From Myxococcales bacterium (GTDB taxonomy: Bacteria > Myxococcota_A > Polyangia > Nannocystales > Nannocystaceae): DNA of 64,000 nucleotides. Numbering within the stretch: position 1 is the first letter of the stretch; each line of letters starts with the position of its first letter. This document shows, piece by piece, positions 6,341 through 15,283 of this stretch. The stretch spans positions 448,071-512,070 of the forward strand of contig JACKDV010000004.1 of the NCBI GenBank assembly GCA_020633315.1. The letters run 5' to 3'. Made by a program: the position numbers and the translations under genes. Below the pieces are notes generated by a model that did not search any database, was not told the origin of the DNA, and saw only the letters and a program-made list of their open reading frames with translations.

Positions 6341-7237
6341 CTACCGCGGAATGGCCTCCACCAGCGCCTCGAGCCGCGCCGCGAGGCCACGCCCGAGCGG
6401 CTCCTGCATCGAGCGCAGCAGCGCCCCCAGCGATGTGCCTGCGCTCGCGCTCGGTCGCGGAGCCGCAGCGGGCGGAGGCGCAGCCCCGCCCCGTCCACCC
6501 GGGATCGCGCCGCTGGATCCGGGCGGCGGAATCGCGGGCGGCCGGGCGGGCGCAGGCGGAGCGGCTCGGGGCGGCGGCGCGGTGGCGCGGGCCGACGCCG
6601 GAGCAGCGGCCATCCTCGACCTCGTCGACCGAGCTCGACCCTGCGAGATCTCGCGACGCAGCGGGTCGGGCTCGGCCCGCACGCGTGCGCGCCGGGCCCC
6701 TTCGCGGGGCGGCTCCTCGAGGGCCTCGCGCATCACCGCCAGCGCCCGGGACACCCGCATGCGCACCGTCCCCGGCCGCAGCCCGAACGCCTCCGCCAGC
6801 TCGTCGTAGCCGAGCTCGTGCTGGAATCGCAGCACCACCAGCGCGCGCTGGGACTCGTCGAGCACCCGCAGCCCTCGCTCCACCAGGGTGCGGTTGGTCA
6901 GCCACGACGACGGCAGCGGCTGCTCATCGGGCGCCTCCTCGGCGTCCACCTCGTCGTCGATCCCCCACGGCCGCGCCTTGCGTCGGCGGAGGTGATCGAT
7001 GCAGCGGTTGCGCGCGATGGCCAGCAGCCAGGTGCGGGGCGAGGCCTCGCCGCGGTAGCTGGCCAGCCCGGTGAACGCCCGGCCGAACGCATCCTGGGCG
7101 AGGTCCTCCGCGGTGGCCGGGTCGCGCACCATCGCGCGACACAGGCCGAGCACCTCGGCCCCGTGCTCGAGCACCAGCCAGCGCGCCGCTCCGCGCACGT
7201 CGCCCTGCTCCAGCCTCGAGACGAGCTCCGTCCCCAT
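6341..7237 (-). CDS. ECF-type RNA polymerase sigma-70 factor with a Pro/Ala-rich C-terminal extension
   Basis: Regions 2 and 4 are recognisable (AEDLAQDAFGRAF ... LRFQHELGYDELAEAFGLRPGTVRMRVSRAL). Start is the internal ATG at 7235-7237. Confidence 0.85.
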   Translation of the reverse strand: MGTELVSRLEQGDVRGAARWLVLEHGAEVLGLCRAMVRDPATAEDLAQDAFGRAFTGLASYRGEASPRTWLLAIARNRCIDHLRRRKARPWGIDDEVDAEEAPDEQPLPSSWLTNRTLVERGLRVLDESQRALVVLRFQHELGYDELAEAFGLRPGTVRMRVSRALAVMREALEEPPREGARRARVRAEPDPLRREISQGRARSTRSRMAAAPASARATAPPPRAAPPAPARPPAIPPPGSSGAIPGGRGGAAPPPAAAPRPSASAGTSLGALLRSMQEPLGRGLAARLEALVEAIPR

Positions 7238-7449
7238 CGTCACCAACGGTAGCCAGCCCGCGCGGGAAATTCGATCGCACGCGGGGCGCCCGGCCTCGGA
7301 GGTCGACGAGCGAGGCCGCCGTTCGTCACCAACGATTTCGATCTTTCCTCCAATCCATTGATATTGCTCGGCTATCGACGACCCTTTCAAGACCGCCGTG
7401 ACGCCCCCCGCCCCTGGCCGGTCGATCCACGCGAAAGGCCAGCGAGCCC

Positions 7450-8475
7450 ATGACCATCACCATCGACAACGACACCATCCGCTTCGGCCGTCGAGGCCTC
7501 ACCCTCAGCTTCCAGCGGACCCTGCGCATCCCCGACGACGGCAAGAGCTACCCGCTGCCCCCCGGCCTGGGTCGCTTCCCCGTGCGACGCGTGGACGACT
7601 ACGCCGAGCGCGTGCCGGCCGAGTGGGTCGAGCACGGCGGCGTGTTCCTGCCCATGTACCAGCGCGAGGCGATGTGGATCTCCTTCGGTCGCCAGGACCA
7701 CCGACCACGTGCGGTGAAGCTGGCGGTGGGCAAGGTGTGTGCGCTGACCGGCAAGCCGTGGTCCGAGTCGCTGCACGCCTCGCCGCAGGACTACCTGGTC
7801 ACGCCGCCGCAGCCGTGGCTCGACGGCATCTACGTGCGCGAGGGCGCGATCCGTCAGTTCATCGCGATGCCGCTGGGACAGGGCTACACGGTCGAGGGCC
7901 AGGTCACCGGGCAGGAGGTCCACGGCGGCCTGCAGATCGAGGTGCTCGAGCCCAAGGCGGGGCGCTTCCCCGAGCCGCCGCCGCGACGAGCCGAGGGCCG
8001 CACGCGCTCCCGCGCCACGATGGCCAGCGCCGGCGCAGCCCCTGCGCCAGCGGCCCCCTGCCGAGCCGCTCCCGGGGGCGCGGCCATGGGCCTGGCCGCG
8101 GGCGGACACATGAAGCAGAAGGTCTACCCCGATCCCCACGGCCTCGACACCTGGGATCCCCACAACACCCACCGCCTGTTCGTGCACATCTGCAACAGCA
8201 TGCAGTGGCGGGAGATCACCGGCGAGGAGGCGCCGCGCACCCCGGTGAGCGCCAAGAGCTACGCCTCGCACGGCCTGCCCTGGTTCGACCTCTACGACGA
8301 GGGCCTGGGCTCGCTGTCGCCCTCCTCCACCCTGGCTGGGGTGGCCTCGGTCAAGGACAAGGACCTCGAGCTGTTCGGCGTCGTGCAACAGGACGACGAC
8401 ACGGTGCAGCCCGGCCCCACCAAGGCGCTGTGGACCTCGGTGGCCAAGGGCGTGGTGCGCGACGGCAACTGGTAG
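7450..8475 (+). CDS. Conserved-looking hypothetical protein (341 aa)
   Basis: Balanced, W/Y/F/H-containing sequence (LPMYQREAMWISF, HICNSMQWREITGE) with one Ala-rich linker. Divergent from the ECF sigma gene. No family assigned. Confidence 0.65.
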   Translation: MTITIDNDTIRFGRRGLTLSFQRTLRIPDDGKSYPLPPGLGRFPVRRVDDYAERVPAEWVEHGGVFLPMYQREAMWISFGRQDHRPRAVKLAVGKVCALTGKPWSESLHASPQDYLVTPPQPWLDGIYVREGAIRQFIAMPLGQGYTVEGQVTGQEVHGGLQIEVLEPKAGRFPEPPPRRAEGRTRSRATMASAGAAPAPAAPCRAAPGGAAMGLAAGGHMKQKVYPDPHGLDTWDPHNTHRLFVHICNSMQWREITGEEAPRTPVSAKSYASHGLPWFDLYDEGLGSLSPSSTLAGVASVKDKDLELFGVVQQDDDTVQPGPTKALWTSVAKGVVRDGNW

Positions 8476-8538
8476 CCACCCTCGCGGCGCCGCGCGGACA
8501 TCCCCGTGGCGCCGCGATATGCTCGCCTCGCTTCGTCG

Positions 8539-11364
8539 ATGGGCATCGAGCGCGAGCAGATCACCGGGACCACCGACGCGACCGACCTGGGGGGATCGGG
8601 GCCCACCCGGGCCCTGCACCGCGAGGACCCGTCCCCGGCCGACGGCCGTGCGCCCGAGGGTGGGCGTCCCTCGGGGCGAGGCCCGGGTCGGACCCTCGGC
8701 CGCTACGTGGTGCTCGAGGATCTCGGCGCCGGCGGCATGAGCCTGGTCTCGGCGGCCTACGATCCCGAGCTCGATCGGCGGGTGGCCCTCAAGGTGATGC
8801 GCGCCGACGTGGGCGAGCGCCCCGAGCGAGCGCAGGCCCGGCTGCTGCGCGAGGCCCAGGCGATGGCCCGCCTCGCGCACCCCAACGTGGTGCGGGTCTA
8901 CGACGTGGGGGTGATCGGCTCGCAAGTGTACATGGCGATGGAGCTGGTCGAGGGCCGGACCCTGCGCGACTGGCTGCAGGCGCGCCCGCGGAGCTGGCGA
9001 GAGATCGTGGCGGTGCTCGTGCGGGCGGGCCGGGGCCTGGCCGCCGCCCACGACGCGGGCCTGGTGCACCTGGACGTCAAGCCGCGCAACATCATGGTGG
9101 GCGATGCGGGCGAGGTGAAGGTGGTCGACTTCGGCCTGGCCCGGCCGCCGCGTGCCTACGACTCCGAGTCCTTCGACGGCGTGCTGCTGCCGGAGGCCGA
9201 CGACACGATCACCCACGCCGGGCTGGTGATGGGCACGCCCGGCTACATGGCTCCCGAGCACCTCGAGGGCTCGCCCGACGCTCGCTCCGATCAGTTCTCG
9301 CTGTGCGTGACCGCCTGGGAGGCGCTGTACGGCCAGCGCCCCTACGGAGGGCGACGCCTCGACGTGTACCGGGGCGCGCTGCGGGCGGGGAAGCTCGCAG
9401 AGCCGCCGACCGAGGCCCGGGTGCCCGCACGCGTGCGACGGCTGCTCGAGCGGGGGCTGAGCATCGCGCCGGCGCAGCGCTGGCCCTCGCTGTCGCCCTT
9501 GCTCGACGCGCTGGCCGACGATCCCTGGCGACGACGCGTCCGCTACGGCGTGGTGGTGGGCATCGCGGGCGTGGCCGCGGTGGGGGCCTGGGCGCTGGGG
9601 CGGGGCCAGGCCGATCCCTGCGGCGGCGTGGACGAGCACCTCGCCCAGACCTGGGACGAGGGGCGGCGCGAGGCCGTGCGCAGCCACCTCGCGCGCGCGG
9701 GAGGCCAGCACGCCGAGGCCACCGCCTACGAGGTGGCCCAACTCCTCGACGACTACGCCGCGGACTGGAGCGCCGAGTGGACCGATGCCTGCCGGGCGGC
9801 CCAGGTGGAGCAGCGGCAATCGGCCGAGCTCCGGGACCTCCGCGACTACTGCCTGCGGCACCGGCTGCGCGCCCTCGACGGGACGGCCCGCGCCATCCTC
9901 GACTCGGAGCCCGAGACCGGCACCTCGTGGCGCGACGCGGTGCTGCGCCTGCCGTCGATCGATCGCTGCCGCGACCTGGGCTCGGTGCACGACGTGGGGC
10001 AGCCCCCCGCCGACCCCGAGCTACGCCGCGAGGTGGAGCGCATCGACTCCGAGCTCGCGCTGGCCCGCGCCCTCTACTATGCCGGGCACAACGAGGCCGG
10101 CGCGCAGAAGGCCCGCGAGGCGCTCGCCGAGGCCGAGCGACTCGATCATCCGCCGCTGCTGGCCGAGGCCAAGCTCGCCCTCGCCGAGGCGCTCAACCTG
10201 CTCGACCAGGCCGACGAGGCCGAGCGCCTCGCCTTCGAGGGCATGTGGGCCGCCGACGCGGCGCAGCTCCACGGCCTGCGCGTGGAGGCGATCATCGGCC
10301 TGGTCTACAACGTGGGGGTGCTCGGAGGTCGCTTCGAGGAGGCCGAGCACCTGGCCCAGGGCGGCATGGTGCTCGAGCGCGAGCTCGTCCACGACCCCAC
10401 GCTGCGCGCCCAGCTGCTCAACCACCTCGCGGCCGTGCACGCCACCGCGGGCGACCCGGCCCGGGCCCAGCAGGAGTACGAGCAGGCGCTTCGGATCCGC
10501 CGCGACCACCACCTGCCCGCCGACCTCGACGAAGGCTCCTCCCTCACCGGCATCGGGGCCACCGCCCTGCTGCTCGGCGACTACGAGCGCGCGCTCGCGG
10601 TGCAGCACGAGGCCTACGCGCTCTATCGCGACAACTACGGTGCCGACCACCCGGGCACCCTGGTGATCCACGAGAACGTGGCCACCACCCTGCTGGGCAT
10701 GGAGCGCTTCGAGGAGGGGCTGGCCGAGGTGGAGGAGCTGCTGCAGATCGCCCACCACGCCGGCCTCGACGACAAGACCATCGCCACCGCCGAGGCCACC
10801 CACGGGGCGGCGCTGCTCGAGCTGCGGCGCTTCGACGAGGCCCGCGAGGCGCTCGAGCACTCTCGCCGCAGCCTGGAGTCGCCGCTGCGGCGGCCGGTGC
10901 TGCTGGGGGTGGTGCGCGGGAACCTGGCGCTGGTGGCCCTCGAGCAGCGGCGCTTCGACGATGCGAAGGCGGAGGCCAACGCCGCGCTCGAGCGGCTGGG
11001 GCCGCTGCTGCCCGAGGACAACCTCTATGTGGTGTGGGCCAAGCTCGCGCTGGCCCGCGCGGAGCTGGGCCGCGGCGAGCCACGGGAGGCGCTGCGGCTC
11101 GCGAGCGAGGGCTGGGCCGTGCTGGAGACGCTCGAGGATCCGATCGGCCCGGACTTGCGCTCCGATGCGGCGCTGGTGTTGGCGCGAGCGCTGGAGGATC
11201 CCGAGGTGCTCGCGGAGCCCGGAGTGATCGAGTCGCTCGGGGGTGGGCGCTCGTCGACGCAGTGGGGCGCCCGCGCGCTGGCCGAGGCCCGCAGCGGCGG
11301 GCGCTCGGCGGAGCCGATGCGGCGACGCGCCGAGGCTTGGAAGCGCCGGCACGGCAGGCCGTGA
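8539..11364 (+). CDS. Ser/Thr protein kinase with C-terminal TPR-repeat domain
   Basis: Hanks kinase motifs are present (GAGGMSLV, VALKV, HLDVKPRNIM, DFGLAR, GTPGYMAPE), followed by a TM segment and ~550 aa of TPR-like repeats. The first ATG is 8539; the track ORF starts at an upstream GTG. Confidence 0.85.
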   Translation: MGIEREQITGTTDATDLGGSGPTRALHREDPSPADGRAPEGGRPSGRGPGRTLGRYVVLEDLGAGGMSLVSAAYDPELDRRVALKVMRADVGERPERAQARLLREAQAMARLAHPNVVRVYDVGVIGSQVYMAMELVEGRTLRDWLQARPRSWREIVAVLVRAGRGLAAAHDAGLVHLDVKPRNIMVGDAGEVKVVDFGLARPPRAYDSESFDGVLLPEADDTITHAGLVMGTPGYMAPEHLEGSPDARSDQFSLCVTAWEALYGQRPYGGRRLDVYRGALRAGKLAEPPTEARVPARVRRLLERGLSIAPAQRWPSLSPLLDALADDPWRRRVRYGVVVGIAGVAAVGAWALGRGQADPCGGVDEHLAQTWDEGRREAVRSHLARAGGQHAEATAYEVAQLLDDYAADWSAEWTDACRAAQVEQRQSAELRDLRDYCLRHRLRALDGTARAILDSEPETGTSWRDAVLRLPSIDRCRDLGSVHDVGQPPADPELRREVERIDSELALARALYYAGHNEAGAQKAREALAEAERLDHPPLLAEAKLALAEALNLLDQADEAERLAFEGMWAADAAQLHGLRVEAIIGLVYNVGVLGGRFEEAEHLAQGGMVLERELVHDPTLRAQLLNHLAAVHATAGDPARAQQEYEQALRIRRDHHLPADLDEGSSLTGIGATALLLGDYERALAVQHEAYALYRDNYGADHPGTLVIHENVATTLLGMERFEEGLAEVEELLQIAHHAGLDDKTIATAEATHGAALLELRRFDEAREALEHSRRSLESPLRRPVLLGVVRGNLALVALEQRRFDDAKAEANAALERLGPLLPEDNLYVVWAKLALARAELGRGEPREALRLASEGWAVLETLEDPIGPDLRSDAALVLARALEDPEVLAEPGVIESLGGGRSSTQWGARALAEARSGGRSAEPMRRRAEAWKRRHGRP

Positions 11365-11395
11365 GCGCTCCGATGCCGGGCTGCCCCAGCGAGGC

Positions 11396-11923
11396 TCAAG
11401 CCTCGGCGTCGGCCATCCACTCCGGCATCACGCCATCGAGCCACGGCCGCTGCTTCTTGCCCACCACCTCCACCGCCACCTCGTCCCCGCGGCGGCGAAA
11501 CACCGCGTAGGGGGTGTACGCCTCGAGGAAGTCCATCTCCTGGTGGCAGTCCTCCTCGCAGAACGCGGCGAACAGGCTGATCGCCTCGCCGTTGTCGTCC
11601 CATTCCATGATGTAGCCGGGCACGCCCTCGCTGGGCTCGTCGGGGCGGCGCCCGGGGGTGTTGACCTCATCGGGCTCGTCCCAGCCGCAGGCCCGCGCCG
11701 CGTCGAGGTCGGGCTCGTCGAGCACGCTGAACACCACGGTCCCGTGCACGGCATCGTCGGCCTCGTCGCACCAGTACTGGGCGACCAGCAGCATGGCGCT
11801 GCGCAGCTCGGGCGCGCGGGCGAGGCCCCGGCGCACGTAGGGCAGCACGAGCTCCCGTAGGTAGCGCTCGCGGCCGGCCGCGGCCTGCTCGGGGCTCATG
11901 GATCGCTGGATCTCGTCGCTCAT
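11396..11923 (-). CDS. Hypothetical protein, paralog A (176 aa, unknown family)
   Basis: Internal ATG (MSDEIQRSMSPEQ...). It shares extended similarity with the protein at 12588..13112 (RYLRELVLPYVRR.LAR.P.LRSAMLLVAQYW.DEADDAVH..V.FSVLDEPDL.AARA..W). The start overlaps the stop of the upstream TIM-barrel gene (ATGA). Confidence 0.7.
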   Translation of the reverse strand: MSDEIQRSMSPEQAAAGRERYLRELVLPYVRRGLARAPELRSAMLLVAQYWCDEADDAVHGTVVFSVLDEPDLDAARACGWDEPDEVNTPGRRPDEPSEGVPGYIMEWDDNGEAISLFAAFCEEDCHQEMDFLEAYTPYAVFRRRGDEVAVEVVGKKQRPWLDGVMPEWMADAEA

Positions 11924-12594
11924 GGGGTCTGCCTCAGGATGCCGAGCTGCTCGCGTCGCTGCGCCGCGTCGAGGCGATGCAGGTAGCTCTCGAGGATGGT
12001 ACGCGTTCCCGCGCGCAGGCGCTCGCGGGCCCAGCCCAGGCCAAAGGTACCGGGGGCAATCGGTCGGTGGGTGTCGTGGCGCCCCGCGTTGGCCGAGACG
12101 TGCACCTCGGCGATGCGATCGTGCTCCCGCAGCCTCCGCCAGGTGGGCTCTCCGACCACGCCCTGCCGGAGCTGGATGTACAGGTGCGAGACGTCGACGG
12201 CCAGCGAGAGCCCGGCCTCCATGGCCAGCTCGAGCTCGTCGCCGCGGCCCAGGCAGTAGCCGGGGTGCATGGTCTCGAACACGGTGGCCGGCCGCGCCCG
12301 CGCGGTGTCGATCCAGGTGGCCGCCGCCGGGGCGTGGCGCTTGGGCGGGTGCACCGAGTCGGAGGCCACGCACAGCGAGCCGTCGTCGGCCCACACCCGG
12401 GTCCGGTAGGCCCGCGGCGTGAACCCGTGGTGCGTGCAGGTGACCACGCCCCGCGCGGTCAGCCAGCCCTCGAAATCGGGGGTGGGCACGTTGCCGGGGG
12501 TGAGCTGCAGACCGTCGGGCCCCAGCGCCAGCAATTCCTCGGCCGCGGCCTGCATGGGACGCCCCTGCAGGCAGCTCAGCGCCAGCATCAACAT
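11920..12594 (-). CDS. Xylose-isomerase-like TIM-barrel protein (sugar phosphate isomerase/epimerase family), short form
   Basis: Motifs AVDVSHLYIQ and IAEVHVSANAGRHDTHRPI. Start is the internal ATG at 12592-12594, 1 nt after the stop of paralog B. Confidence 0.65.
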   Translation of the reverse strand: MLMLALSCLQGRPMQAAAEELLALGPDGLQLTPGNVPTPDFEGWLTARGVVTCTHHGFTPRAYRTRVWADDGSLCVASDSVHPPKRHAPAAATWIDTARARPATVFETMHPGYCLGRGDELELAMEAGLSLAVDVSHLYIQLRQGVVGEPTWRRLREHDRIAEVHVSANAGRHDTHRPIAPGTFGLGWARERLRAGTRTILESYLHRLDAAQRREQLGILRQTP

Positions 12595-13112
12595 CCGGCC
12601 TCCCCCTGCGGCATCACCCCGTCGAGCCAGGGACGCTTCATCGTGCCCACCACCTCGATGGCAATGCTGCCGTCGATGCAGCGCAGCAGCGCGTAGGGCG
12701 AGTAGGCGTCCAGGTAGCCCATGTCCTGGTGGCAGCCCTCGTCGCAGAAGGCCGCGAACAACGAGATCGCCTCGCCGTTCTCGTTCCAACCGAAGAGACC
12801 CTCATCGTCGTCGAGGTCGTCGCTGAGCACCGAGGAGTGACGCCCGGGGGTGTTGACCTCGTCCCGCTCCCAGTCCGCCGCGCGGGCGGCCTCGAGATCG
12901 GGCTCGTCGAGCACGCTGAACAGCACCTCGCGGTGGACCGCGTCGTCGGCCTCGTCGTTCCAGTACTGCGCCACCAGCAGCATCGCGCTGCGCAGGTCGG
13001 GATGCCGGGCGAGCACGCGGCGCACGTAGGGCAGCACCAGCTCTCGCAGGTAGCGCTGGCGCCCCGCCTCGGCCTGCTCGGGGGTCAGCTTGGTCTGGAC
13101 CGCGTCGCCCAC
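12588..13112 (-). CDS. Hypothetical protein, paralog B (about 175 aa)
   Basis: Paralogous to 11396..11923. The start is ambiguous: a GTG around 13112 (VGDAVQTKLTPEQ) aligns with the paralog's N-terminus, while the ATG at 13283 adds 57 non-conserved residues. Confidence 0.6.
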   Translation of the reverse strand: MGDAVQTKLTPEQAEAGRQRYLRELVLPYVRRVLARHPDLRSAMLLVAQYWNDEADDAVHREVLFSVLDEPDLEAARAADWERDEVNTPGRHSSVLSDDLDDDEGLFGWNENGEAISLFAAFCDEGCHQDMGYLDAYSPYALLRCIDGSIAIEVVGTMKRPWLDGVMPQGEAGC

Positions 13113-13267
13113 GGAGAATCTTGCCGCAATCCTTATACCCGAGGGGCGCTCCTCGGCGTTGGGGCCGTTGGGATGGTTTGGCGCACACGAGGGAACCTTC
13201 TGGGCGCCGACGCGTATGTACGGTCCGAGGGTGGGGGACGTGGGGTGCCCCCATGCGGAGGTGTGGG

Positions 13268-15283
13268 ATGGTCCGAGGCACATTTCTACTCCTGGGGGCG
13301 CTCGTGCTCGCGTCGCCGTCGTCCAGCGCGGCTTCCGAGCCCGAGCCCGCGGTGGCGAGCACCGGGCGGATCGCCGGGGTGATCCACGACGGCGCGGGCA
13401 AGCCGGTGGCCGGGGCCACGGTGACCCTGCTGTGTAGCTGCCTGACCAAGGCGACCTCCACCAAGACCAAGGCCGACGGCACCTACGTCTTCGAGGGCCT
13501 GCCGCCGGGGGTGTACTCGGTGCGCGTGCGCAAGGGCGGGCGCGACGTGGTGCAGCACCTCACCCTCGGTGAGGGCGAGCGGGTGAGCACCACCATCGCC
13601 CTGGCCTCGCCGCCCAAGGAGGAGCCCGCGACCAGCAAGCCCGCCAAGAAGTCCAAGGGACGGGTGGCAGCCAAGACCGTCGATCCCATGGGGCTGCTCG
13701 ATCCGAGCGCCTCGACCAGCCGCTCGACCTCGCGGGCCGCCCGCAAGCGCGACGCGGCCGGGGTCGCGGGCGGAGTACCCGGGGGAGTGGTCGGCGGCAC
13801 GCTGGGAGGCCGCAGCGCCGGCGTGGCCGCGCTGCGCGTCCCGGTGGAGCCCGCCAACACCGAGGGCTACGCCCACATCCGCGAGAACGACTTCGTCGCC
13901 GTCTCCGATGCCCCGCTGTCGACCTTCTCGGCCGACGTCGACACCGCCTCGTACAGCAACGTGCGGCGCTTCCTCTCGCAGGGCCAGCGCCCGCCGATCG
14001 ATGCGGTGCGGGTGGAGGAGCTCGTCAACTACTTCGAGTACGACTACGTCACCCCGCCCGACGACCGGCCGGTGACCGTCAACTGGGAGGTCGGCCCCTG
14101 CCCGTGGAACGAGGACCACCAGCTCGTTCGCATCGGGCTGCAGACCAAGCCGATCGCCGACGCCGAGGTGCCCCCGCGCAACCTGGTGTTCCTCGTCGAC
14201 GTGTCGGGCTCGATGCAGTCGCCCGACAAGCTGCCCCTGCTGGTGCGCTCGATGGGCCTGCTGGTCGACCAGCTCCGCGAGCAGGACATGGTGAGCCTGG
14301 TGGTGTACGCCGGCGCCTCCGGGCTGGTGCTGCCGCCCACCTCGGGCGCGTACCGGGACCGCATCCGCGACGCGCTGGCCGAGCTGACCCCGGGCGGCTC
14401 GACCAACGGCGCGGCCGGGATCCGCCTGGCCTACCAGCAGGCCCGCAACGCCTTCATCGAGGGCGGGATCAACCGGGTGATCCTCGCCACCGACGGCGAC
14501 TTCAACGTGGGCACCACCAGCGACGGCGACCTGGTGCGGCTCATCGAGCAGGAGCGCGAGTCGGGGGTGTTCCTGTCGGTGCTGGGCTTCGGCCAGGGCA
14601 ACCTACAGGACGCCAAGATGGAGCAGCTCGCCGACGAGGGCAACGGCAACTACGCGTACATCGACGACCTGCACGAGGGCCGCAAGGTGCTGGTGCAGCA
14701 GGCGGGCGCCACCCTGGTCACCGTGGCCAAGGACGTCAAGCTCCAGGTGGAATTCAACCCGGCCCTGGTCGCGGAGTATCGGCAGGTGGGCTACGAGAAC
14801 CGCCGGCTGCGCGACGAGGACTTCAACGACGACACCAAGGACGCGGGCGAGATGGGGGCGGGGCACTCGGTGACCGTGCTCTACGAGATCGTCCCCGCCA
14901 GCGGAGGTGAGGGGGGCGGCACGGCGCCGCGCCGCGTGGATGCGCTCAAGTACCAGGGTGAGCGCACCACCACCGCCGCCGCGGCCAGCGACGAGCTGAT
15001 GACGGTGAAGGTCCGCTTCAAGCGTCCGCAGGGCAGCAAGAGCCGGCTGATGTCGGTGGCCGTGCGCGGCACGCCCTCGACCTTGGCGAAGACCTCGGAC
15101 GACTTCCGCTTCGCCGCCGCGGTGGCCGAGCTGGGGATGATCCTGCGCGACTCGGAGCACAAGGGCAGCGCCACCCTCGAGTCGGTCGCGATGCTGGCCC
15201 GCAAGGCCCAGGGCAAGGACCCGCACGGTCACCGCAAGGGCCTGCTGGAGCTGGTCGAGCAGGCGCGCGCCGTGGGGTACTGA
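13268..15283 (+). CDS. Secreted vWA-domain protein (YfbK/BatA-like: carboxypeptidase-regulatory-like domain + vWA + DUF3520-type C-terminus)
   Basis: Signal peptide MVRGTFLLLGALVLASPSSSAASEP. The ATG at 13268 is preceded by GGAGG. The MIDAS motif is VFLVDVSGSM. Confidence 0.85.
   Translation: MVRGTFLLLGALVLASPSSSAASEPEPAVASTGRIAGVIHDGAGKPVAGATVTLLCSCLTKATSTKTKADGTYVFEGLPPGVYSVRVRKGGRDVVQHLTLGEGERVSTTIALASPPKEEPATSKPAKKSKGRVAAKTVDPMGLLDPSASTSRSTSRAARKRDAAGVAGGVPGGVVGGTLGGRSAGVAALRVPVEPANTEGYAHIRENDFVAVSDAPLSTFSADVDTASYSNVRRFLSQGQRPPIDAVRVEELVNYFEYDYVTPPDDRPVTVNWEVGPCPWNEDHQLVRIGLQTKPIADAEVPPRNLVFLVDVSGSMQSPDKLPLLVRSMGLLVDQLREQDMVSLVVYAGASGLVLPPTSGAYRDRIRDALAELTPGGSTNGAAGIRLAYQQARNAFIEGGINRVILATDGDFNVGTTSDGDLVRLIEQERESGVFLSVLGFGQGNLQDAKMEQLADEGNGNYAYIDDLHEGRKVLVQQAGATLVTVAKDVKLQVEFNPALVAEYRQVGYENRRLRDEDFNDDTKDAGEMGAGHSVTVLYEIVPASGGEGGGTAPRRVDALKYQGERTTTAAAASDELMTVKVRFKRPQGSKSRLMSVAVRGTPSTLAKTSDDFRFAAAVAELGMILRDSEHKGSATLESVAMLARKAQGKDPHGHRKGLLELVEQARAVGY

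Follow-up and report, generated by a model that had tools for sequence, protein, structure and literature searches.

TIM-barrel metalloenzymes with a dedicated small partner are already known. The C-glycoside deglycosidases (DgpB/C, CarB/C, DfgA/B) need a small second subunit for their xylose-isomerase-like TIM barrel; their genes neighbour that of a sugar oxidoreductase, and they work with a single metal. Endonuclease IV (Endo IV; Nfo in E. coli) is a housekeeping repair enzyme that stands alone and is not known to have a partner gene. In the nuclease systems EsaD-EsaG and YeeF-YezG, which have DUF600 immunity arrays, downstream of an enzyme gene lie one or more diverged gene copies for a small acidic protein. 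The barrel of MbnB, a multi-iron oxidase of the MNIO family, is capped by MbnC, which has an N-terminal helical part and two helices on a four-stranded antiparallel sheet (PMC9060507). Here, we describe a three-gene operon in a 64,000-nt stretch of a Myxococcales bacterium (GenBank assembly GCA_020633315.1, contig JACKDV010000004.1, positions 448,071 to 512,070), referred to below as the window, with positions counted from its first letter. All three genes lie on the minus strand. They are partner paralogue B (12588 to 13112; 174 amino acids, GTG start, isoelectric point [pI] 4.3), an acidic alpha+beta protein of an unnamed family; a gene for a 224-amino acid minimal xylose-isomerase-like TIM barrel with a putative multinuclear metal site (11920 to 12594), which we call TIM; and partner paralogue A (11396 to 11923; 175 amino acids, pI 4.3), which belongs to the same family as B.

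The enzyme and its partner form a pair of this known kind, and the partner belongs to no described family. We consider the best explanation to be that the three genes encode an obligate two-subunit metalloenzyme, with the partner docking on the barrel as a specificity subunit, and we assign this reading a probability of about 40%. The observations behind it are the folds of both proteins, a conserved ligand set, tight reciprocal linkage of the two genes, and recurrent multiplication and fusion of the partner.

To assess the linkage, we fetched 80 genome loci via the TIM protein and scanned them with hidden Markov models (HMMs) of both families; 76 of the loci were assessable, and the partner was present in 69 of these. 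It lay immediately downstream of TIM on the same strand in 60 of the 80 loci, immediately upstream in 4, and nearby but not adjacent in 5. Seven loci had no partner despite room on both sides of TIM, and four ended at a contig edge. In the reverse direction, 64 metagenome loci found via the partner included 51 with TIM adjoining, 8 cut by the contig end, and 5 without TIM despite room, giving a TIM gene in 51 of 56 assessable loci. The median gap between the HMM matches of TIM and partner was approximately 38 nt. Myxococcus stipitatus and Ahniella both carry a TIM homologue (52 to 54% identical) directly upstream of an A homologue, with the same 4-nt overlap as in the window. This reciprocal co-occurrence rules out chance adjacency. 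The partner family is therefore tied to TIM genes, with linkage of about 90% in both directions, and the case that the sequence-only reading named as a refutation, a family found everywhere independent of such genes, does not hold. The sequence-only reading of this locus took two paralogues bracketing an enzyme as the defining arrangement; the real unit is the enzyme-partner pair, in which the partner is normally downstream.

Homologues of A fell into 112 clusters at 90% identity, all of them unnamed and without Pfam domains, including proteins from Myxococcus stipitatus, Corallococcus (Citreicoccus), Ahniella affigens, and Pleionea. Homologues of the TIM protein formed 440 clusters, and the partner family is small: 1.84 billion representatives yielded 486 clusters at 50% identity. 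Carriers were found in the Myxococcota, Cyanobacteria (Nostoc, Aerosakkonema, Hormoscilla, Chamaesiphon, and Hyella), Actinomycetota (Acidimicrobiales), Acidobacteriota (Blastocatellia), and Planctomycetota (Planctomycetia), as well as in the Gammaproteobacteria, Alphaproteobacteria, and Candidatus Blackallbacteria. The pair is thus conserved across at least six bacterial phyla and is a real functional unit. Our literature searches found no publication naming either protein or the family TIGR02996, which is fused to some partners (see below), and a study of the MNIO landscape does not describe the pair.

No third neighbour was conserved with the pair across phyla. Clustering of neighbouring genes recovered only lineage-specific synteny, and the five annotated contexts all differed from one another. 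We also clustered open reading frames (ORFs) of 15 to 90 amino acids within 900 nt of the module at all loci and found none conserved across phyla beside it. The sole cross-lineage cluster near the module was the C-terminus of the partner itself, which rules out a cluster for a ribosomally made, post-translationally modified peptide (RiPP) with a hidden short precursor. Searches with tblastn gave no match for either protein in 72,556 plasmids and no match for the TIM protein in 50,697 phage records. On viral contigs, the pair occurred only once, in IMG/VR (IMGVR_UViG_3300030108_006260; 240 kb, 48% G+C). There it sits at the contig end (4330 to 5801 of our extracted locus), and the partner has a C-terminal extension; this contig could represent a jumbo phage, flank a prophage, or have been misclassified.

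Five loci (L014, L039, L042, L051, and L053) carry a TIM gene in which each of the 12 key residues described below is intact, and they have no recognisable partner within 6 kb, even at relaxed thresholds; in these genomes, the partner could lie elsewhere. The gene following TIM appears, as judged by eye, to be Rho-like in L053, and it encodes a Ser/Thr kinase in L014. In Pleionea sp. CnH1-48 (L075, 6001 to 6665; L151, 7364 to 7998), TIM is split by an apparent frameshift into ORFs of 94 and 125 amino acids, with an intact partner downstream; the split reflects either a pseudogene or an error in sequencing.

Confident modelling of the TIM protein gave a (beta/alpha)8 barrel that resembles solved structures of the xylose-isomerase-like superfamily, in agreement with what the sequence-only reading proposed for the middle gene. 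Its structural neighbours (score and percentage in brackets) were MJ1311, which is tagatose-epimerase-like (15.3, 16%), Thermus thermophilus Endo IV (14.5, 20%), MbnB (7FC0; 14.1, 18%), E. coli Nfo (13.5, 14%), TglH (8HCI; 11.5, 14%), and UVDE (10.2, 17%), and TIM is the smallest barrel among them. Sequence profiles were far less informative. PF01261 (AP_endonuc_2) scored 15.5 bits against the TIM protein of the window, below its cutoff of 31.1, and weakly matched 13 of 41 diverse family members (E ≤ 5; best, 1.4e-5). PF05114 (MbnB_TglH_ChrH) touched 2 of the 41, at a best E of approximately 0.1, which is not significant. We found no match for TIM in NCBIfam and nothing at E ≤ 10 when its profile was compared with the PDB sequences, and hmmsearch with the TIM family HMM gave Nfo a nonsignificant -0.3 bits. 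By fold, TIM is therefore a member of the xylose-isomerase-like superfamily, and it falls short of the sequence cutoffs for Endo IV/AP_endonuc_2 as well as for the MNIO family.

Across the 41 family members, eleven residues are invariant (H55, H82, E107, D134, H137, E163, H165, D174, H176, E202, and H206) and H56 is nearly so. All twelve were present in 72 of the 85 TIM hits in the fetched loci, the others being mostly fragments. The enzyme is near neutral in charge, and identity across phyla is 50 to 60%. In an hhalign comparison with Nfo that reached a probability of only 3.9%, D134, H137, H165, D174, H176, and E202 aligned with D179, H182, H216, D229, H231, and E261, which belong to the nine residues that bind the trinuclear Zn site of Endo IV and include its D-x-x-H pair. 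The remaining three Nfo ligands are H69, H109, and E145, which stand in the motifs LPHDSY, NFHPG, and IENTAG. Judging by motif and strand position, their plausible counterparts in TIM would be H55, H82, and E107, in THHGF, SVHPP, and LETMYPG at the corresponding strand ends. TIM differs from Endo IV in length (224 versus 285 amino acids) and in lacking a significant profile match, and nothing in this analysis indicated that it binds DNA.

The same residues can be read against MbnB, whose iron ligands are H54, H90, E133, D163, N166, H192, D208, H210, and E239 (PMC9060507). By pattern rather than by direct alignment, the TIM residues follow the order and spacing of these ligands, with the series H, H, E, D, H, D-x-H, E corresponding; however, the position of the third-site ligand Asn166 is occupied by His137. 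TIM further differs from MbnB in having no significant PF05114 match and a barrel approximately 40 to 60 residues shorter than the solved MbnB chains (260 to 264 amino acids). From these comparisons, the barrel very probably holds a two- or three-metal centre. The D-x-x-H ligand favours phosphoester hydrolysis (with Zn or Mn) as its chemistry. The lineages that carry TIM are, as far as is known, aerobic or oxygenic, and this restriction mildly favours O2 activation (with Fe).

The metal site also bears on whether TIM is an ordinary isomerase, epimerase, or lyase acting on sugars or other small molecules, with an accessory subunit as in DgpB/C and CarB/C. Some family members carry the JGI name "sugar phosphate isomerase/epimerase," and the deglycosidases share with the pair a xylose-isomerase-like barrel that needs a small second subunit. 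Sugar epimerases of the superfamily are known to have a single-metal, four-residue site, whereas TIM retains the two N-terminal His residues and the D-x-H loop, which are the defining features of three-metal sites in Endo IV and MbnB. The small subunits of the deglycosidases are dissimilar to the partner, which is unlike any solved small subunit, and the gene context of those enzymes is not found at the pair: no sugar-metabolism transporter, oxidoreductase, kinase, or regulator is conserved beside it. The partner arrays and leucine-rich repeat (LRR) fusions described below are also hard to explain for such an enzyme, and we regard this alternative as very unlikely.

The partner was modelled with AlphaFold2 at a mean confidence (predicted local distance difference test) of 92.3. 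Its chain begins with a 26-residue N-terminal helix, followed by a beta-hairpin at residues 42 to 66 that carries the motif QYWxDEAxDAVH, a short helix, a long loop, another helix, the FAAFCxExxxQ segment, a second hairpin, and an RPWLDG motif. Thirteen residues are invariant (R18, Q49, W51, D53, A55, D57, V59, S66, P71, E124, Q128, P160, and G164); the two cysteines of a C...CH motif are not. Conservation is bipartite, with the hairpins and motifs kept and the central loop (residues 73 to 107 of A) hypervariable, ranging from 30 to 91 residues; this loop is also the main difference between A and B. The family is acidic throughout, with a median pI of 4.5 and a median net charge of -17. We found no significant match to the partner among solved structures, and its profile retrieved only a spurious ferritin match (E 1.1) from the PDB sequences. 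As the sequence-only reading had it, A and B are small proteins of no known family, with no match in Pfam, NCBIfam, PADLOC, or PHROGs. Judging by its model, the partner appears to have a new fold, one used in evolution as a module. It has the same inventory of secondary-structure elements as MbnC, but the two systems differ in that no precursor peptide gene accompanies the pair, the partner Cys residues are not conserved, and the partner is multiplied and LRR-fused. To our knowledge, neither multiplication nor LRR fusion occurs in MbnC. A second gene product of the MbnC, TglI, or DUF2063 type, as expected beside an MNIO, was not found at the pair.

These features can be weighed against the idea that TIM is a protein-modifying enzyme, an MNIO-like oxidase or another modifier, that alters a residue of the partner, in which case the paralogues would be several substrates, comparable to RiPP clusters with multiple precursors. 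MNIOs are reported to act on adjacent peptides and possibly on whole proteins, and most of their substrates have Cys motifs (PMC12452194). The TIM ligand pattern is compatible with that of MbnB, MNIOs are among its structural neighbours, its carriers belong to aerobic or oxygenic lineages, and the invariant polar cluster of the partner could be a modification or metal site; partners in multiple copies and tandem domains would also fit substrates. However, only the 2 marginal matches noted above connect TIM to the Pfam family MbnB_TglH_ChrH, the "highly conserved" Asn ligand of MNIOs is replaced by His, and the C...CH cysteines vary. Furthermore, the partner is a well-folded protein of 175 amino acids without leader/core organisation, and the neighbourhoods that we examined contained no RiPP recognition element, DUF2063-type partner, protease, or exporter. 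A substrate role for the partner therefore seems improbable to us.

The two partner copies in the window are paralogues, as the sequence-only reading recognised from four shared sequence blocks, all of which are present, and the ORFs lie where it placed them. BLASTP aligned A and B with 113 identities over 174 positions (65%; E 8e-78), and B matched an HMM built from the partner family alignment at E 7.7e-70. Identity is 83 to 88% in the N-terminal core and 40% in the central loop. The duplication was, however, described as recent. At the DNA level, the copies are 75.8% identical, with a synonymous divergence (dS) of 0.57 and a dN/dS ratio of 0.39, so the duplication is real, old, and maintained by selection, with both copies under purifying selection. 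Given this divergence, and because the trio was also found in independent metagenome-assembled genomes (MAGs), two in all, neither an assembly artefact nor a recent duplication can account for the two copies. In one Myxococcales MAG, the genes are annotated by NCBI as hypothetical proteins H6712_11040 to H6712_11050, with B likewise 174 amino acids long; in the second, independent MAG, they are KC501_15525 to KC501_15535.

Multiple partners are not peculiar to the window. Two to five partner ORFs were present in 16 of the 69 partner-bearing genome loci, although in one of these (L016) the two ORFs are probably a single split gene. The copies in the window and those in L005, L038, L044, L049, and L074 are most closely related to one another within each locus, at 56 to 79% identity, and duplication has therefore occurred independently several times, in at least six lineages. 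In six other loci (L031, L036, L045, L064, L067, and L071), the first three of which hold arrays of four to five copies, the copies are of old origin and have orthologues from one genome to another. An enzyme flanked by a copy on either side is thus a single case of a general, often lineage-specific, tendency of the partner to multiply.

Several of these arrays have further features. In L031 (6001 to 11244), L036 (6001 to 11579), and L045 (3037 to 8989), which together represent one Blastocatellia and two Actinomycetota MAGs, approximately 2.1 kb separates TIM from the partner array. In L031, this gap contains a gene for a secreted alkyl-sulfatase-like metallo-beta-lactamase (6700 to 8724; Pfam Alkyl_sulf_dimr, Alkyl_sulf_C, and Lactamase_B). 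One partner copy is 96 to 97% identical between the Blastocatellia and Actinomycetota contigs, which reflects either recent horizontal transfer or mis-binning. In L071 (5977 to 9885), TIM precedes four genes that overlap one another start to stop, in which canonical partners (6703 to 7479 and 8219 to 9091) alternate with co-linear ORFs (7476 to 8222 and 9088 to 9885) that lack QYWxDEAxDAVH. The latter may be degenerate partner paralogues, a tentative assignment given an hhalign probability of 3%.

The partner domain is also found in larger polypeptides. Seven proteins (P0233 to P0238 and P0240) contain two partner domains in a single chain, often one degenerate and one canonical. In several tandem proteins, the acidic hairpin motif is missing from the first domain and retained in the second, a hint that the partner acts as a dimer in which one "active" protomer is sufficient. 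At approximately 30 Myxococcota loci (for example, L041, 4543 to 6273, and L058, 6653 to 8130), the partner domain is the N-terminus of a protein of 450 to 590 amino acids, the remainder of which comprises a TIGR02996 domain (E 2.3e-13; 49.7 bits versus a cutoff of 29.05 in a fused Myxococcota homologue) and an LRR-like region; the latter was judged by eye, and no repeat family matched it in Pfam or NCBIfam. Two proteins (P0345 and P0319) have the reverse order, starting with TIGR02996 and an LRR-like region and ending in the partner domain. The name of TIGR02996 comes from Gemmata, and the family has many paralogues in Myxococcus and Gemmata. A and B themselves gave no match to TIGR02996 in NCBIfam and are linked to it only through domain fusion in their relatives. 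In other lineages, helical tails of 100 to 135 amino acids are appended to the partner.

Acidic copies in arrays and LRR fusions recall immunity genes, and the sequence-only reading raised an immunity-like duplication. The pair would then be an enzyme and its inhibitor, of the toxin-antitoxin or immunity type: TIM would be an Endo IV-like nuclease or phosphodiesterase that is harmful when free, the acidic partner would plug its metal site or mimic nucleic acid, and extra copies would be spare or orphan immunity genes. A self-contained module of two overlapping genes, distributed patchily over many phyla in variable neighbourhoods, is consistent with this idea, as are the D-x-x-H ligand, which Endo IV has in place of the MNIO Asn, and a very acidic partner that occurs in arrays, much like the diverged small proteins of EsaD-EsaG and YeeF-YezG, and also as orphans. 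The LRR fusions are reminiscent of Imm-LRR immunity proteins from polymorphic toxin systems (PMC3482391). In contrast to the enzymes of the DUF600 systems, however, TIM is a free cytoplasmic barrel without a secretion or delivery domain, and the module did not appear in the plasmid and phage collections searched and was on a single contig in IMG/VR; PADLOC gave no match either. An identity of 50 to 60% across phyla is unusually high for a conflict gene, and the roughly 13 invariant polar residues of the partner across phyla are unlike fast-evolving immunity proteins. Nor is the enzyme always accompanied by a would-be antidote: the pair is adjacent in approximately 90% of loci, and the five TIM-only loci with 12 of 12 key residues are exceptions. 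The lack of plasmid and phage matches and the intact partner-less TIM genes weaken the immunity-like interpretation, and we consider an enzyme-inhibitor pair unlikely. A chaperone or substrate-binding pair, which the sequence-only reading offered for A and B, is possible.

We return to the two-subunit metalloenzyme. In such an enzyme, the 224-amino acid barrel would be the catalytic subunit, with a metal site that is multinuclear and probably trinuclear, like those of Endo IV and the MbnB-type multi-iron oxidases. The acidic partner of approximately 175 amino acids would be made in step with it through the overlapping start and stop codons. The conserved core of the partner, comprising the QYWxDEAxDAVH hairpin, the W..NG.AI..FAA.C.E...Q segment, and the RPWLDG motif, would dock on the open face of the barrel, and the hypervariable acidic loop, or elsewhere the appended TIGR02996+LRR module, would select or present the target. 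The partner would thus be a capping or specificity subunit, as MbnC is for MbnB, and A and B would be either alternative partners of one enzyme or halves of a heterodimeric partner. We prefer this explanation because of the bipartite conservation of the partner, its diverged copies, the tandems of canonical and degenerate domains, and the fusions at either end, as well as the lack of matches among the plasmids and phages searched and the persistence of enzymes without a partner. Fusion of TIGR02996 and an LRR-like region to either end of the partner fits an adaptor that carries a protein-binding module.

We infer the physical complex, its docking surface, the adaptor role, the identity of the metals, and a hydrolytic or oxidative chemistry from the comparisons above. 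Several points weigh against this explanation. Structural comparison detected no similarity of the partner to MbnC, no candidate target is encoded nearby, and no short ORF beside the module is shared across phyla. An apparently intact TIM is present without a partner at five to seven loci, and a partner without TIM at five, so either the dependence is not absolute or the missing gene lies elsewhere. Finally, the strong acidity of the partner (median net charge, -17) fits an inhibitor that blocks the active site or mimics DNA equally well.

A bolder version of the two-subunit metalloenzyme, which we offer tentatively and think somewhat less probable, is that the pair is an unrecognised class of two-component system, in which a three-metal mini-barrel like Endo IV or an MNIO would act on macromolecules and the partner would be a portable docking module for retargeting it. 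TIM would then act on proteins recruited by the partner, or on the partner itself, and lineages would multiply the partner and fuse it to LRR receptors following a logic like that of substrate-receptor adaptors.

The operon itself is compact. In the window, the genes run head to tail on the minus strand in the order B-TIM-A, each start overlapping the preceding stop, and the G+C content of the window is approximately 73%. The 4-nt overlap ATGA of the TIM stop codon with the A start codon (11920 to 11923) is as the sequence-only reading described it. The same reading placed the TIM start 1 nt after the stop of B; instead, the two genes overlap by 7 nt (ATGTTGA, 12588 to 12594), with the TIM start codon at 12594 to 12592 and the B stop codon at 12590 to 12588. 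The ATG at 12594 aligns with the starts of homologues (MLxLALSCLQGRP in 40 homologues); a second in-frame ATG at 12588 would overlap B by 1 nt. A GGAGG read from the sequence lies 4 nt upstream of the TIM ATG (12603 to 12599, minus strand), and a GAGG lies 8 nt upstream of the A start codon (11935 to 11932, minus strand). These overlaps are compatible with the translational coupling of all three genes that had been proposed. For B, homologue alignment and the NCBI annotation support the GTG at 13112 as the start; an in-frame ATG at 13283, used by several ENA/Logan gene calls, would lengthen the protein to 231 amino acids.

Upstream, the operon is divergent from a gene for a YfbK-like von Willebrand factor A (VWA) protein (13253 to 15283). 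A consensus scan of the operon found neither a sigma-70-like promoter nor an intrinsic terminator; the promoter must sit in the 140-nt stretch between B and the divergent VWA gene (the 13113 to 13283 region). Downstream, the operon is convergent with a Ser/Thr kinase gene with tetratricopeptide repeats (TPR; 8506 to 11364), as the sequence-only reading stated. We treated this proximity as coincidence and rejected a functional link, since kinase genes were present in only 12 of 82 loci, mostly in Myxococcota, and none lies beside the pair in Ahniella, M. stipitatus, or cyanobacteria. Myxococcota genomes are rich in Ser/Thr kinases. An ORF of 341 amino acids on the plus strand (7450 to 8475), without a Pfam match, ends 30 nt before the kinase-TPR gene and may be co-transcribed with it. 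Long ORFs overlap the kinase gene in other frames (867 amino acids on the minus strand and 1,370 on the plus strand, within 7387 to 11510), and we rejected them as genes; their translations are Arg/Ala-rich and of low complexity, as is typical of artefacts at 73% G+C.

Neither protein has a name or a match above threshold in Pfam or NCBIfam, yet the pair is approximately 90% linked in both directions over at least six phyla. Its enzyme has a barrel smaller than those of all the listed structural neighbours, together with a putative full ligand set of three-metal enzymes. Endo IV cleaves DNA and MbnB-type MNIOs oxidise peptides, and the metal and substrate of TIM would extend one of these chemistries. 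With two genes and soluble proteins, the pair is a compact and directly testable system, relevant to enzymology and to research on MNIOs, RiPPs, or conflict systems. The function of the partner would also give a first handle on the uncharacterised TIGR02996+LRR family. If the retargeting view is true, the pair would represent a new enzyme family and a new fold family, with a new post-translational or nucleic-acid chemistry.

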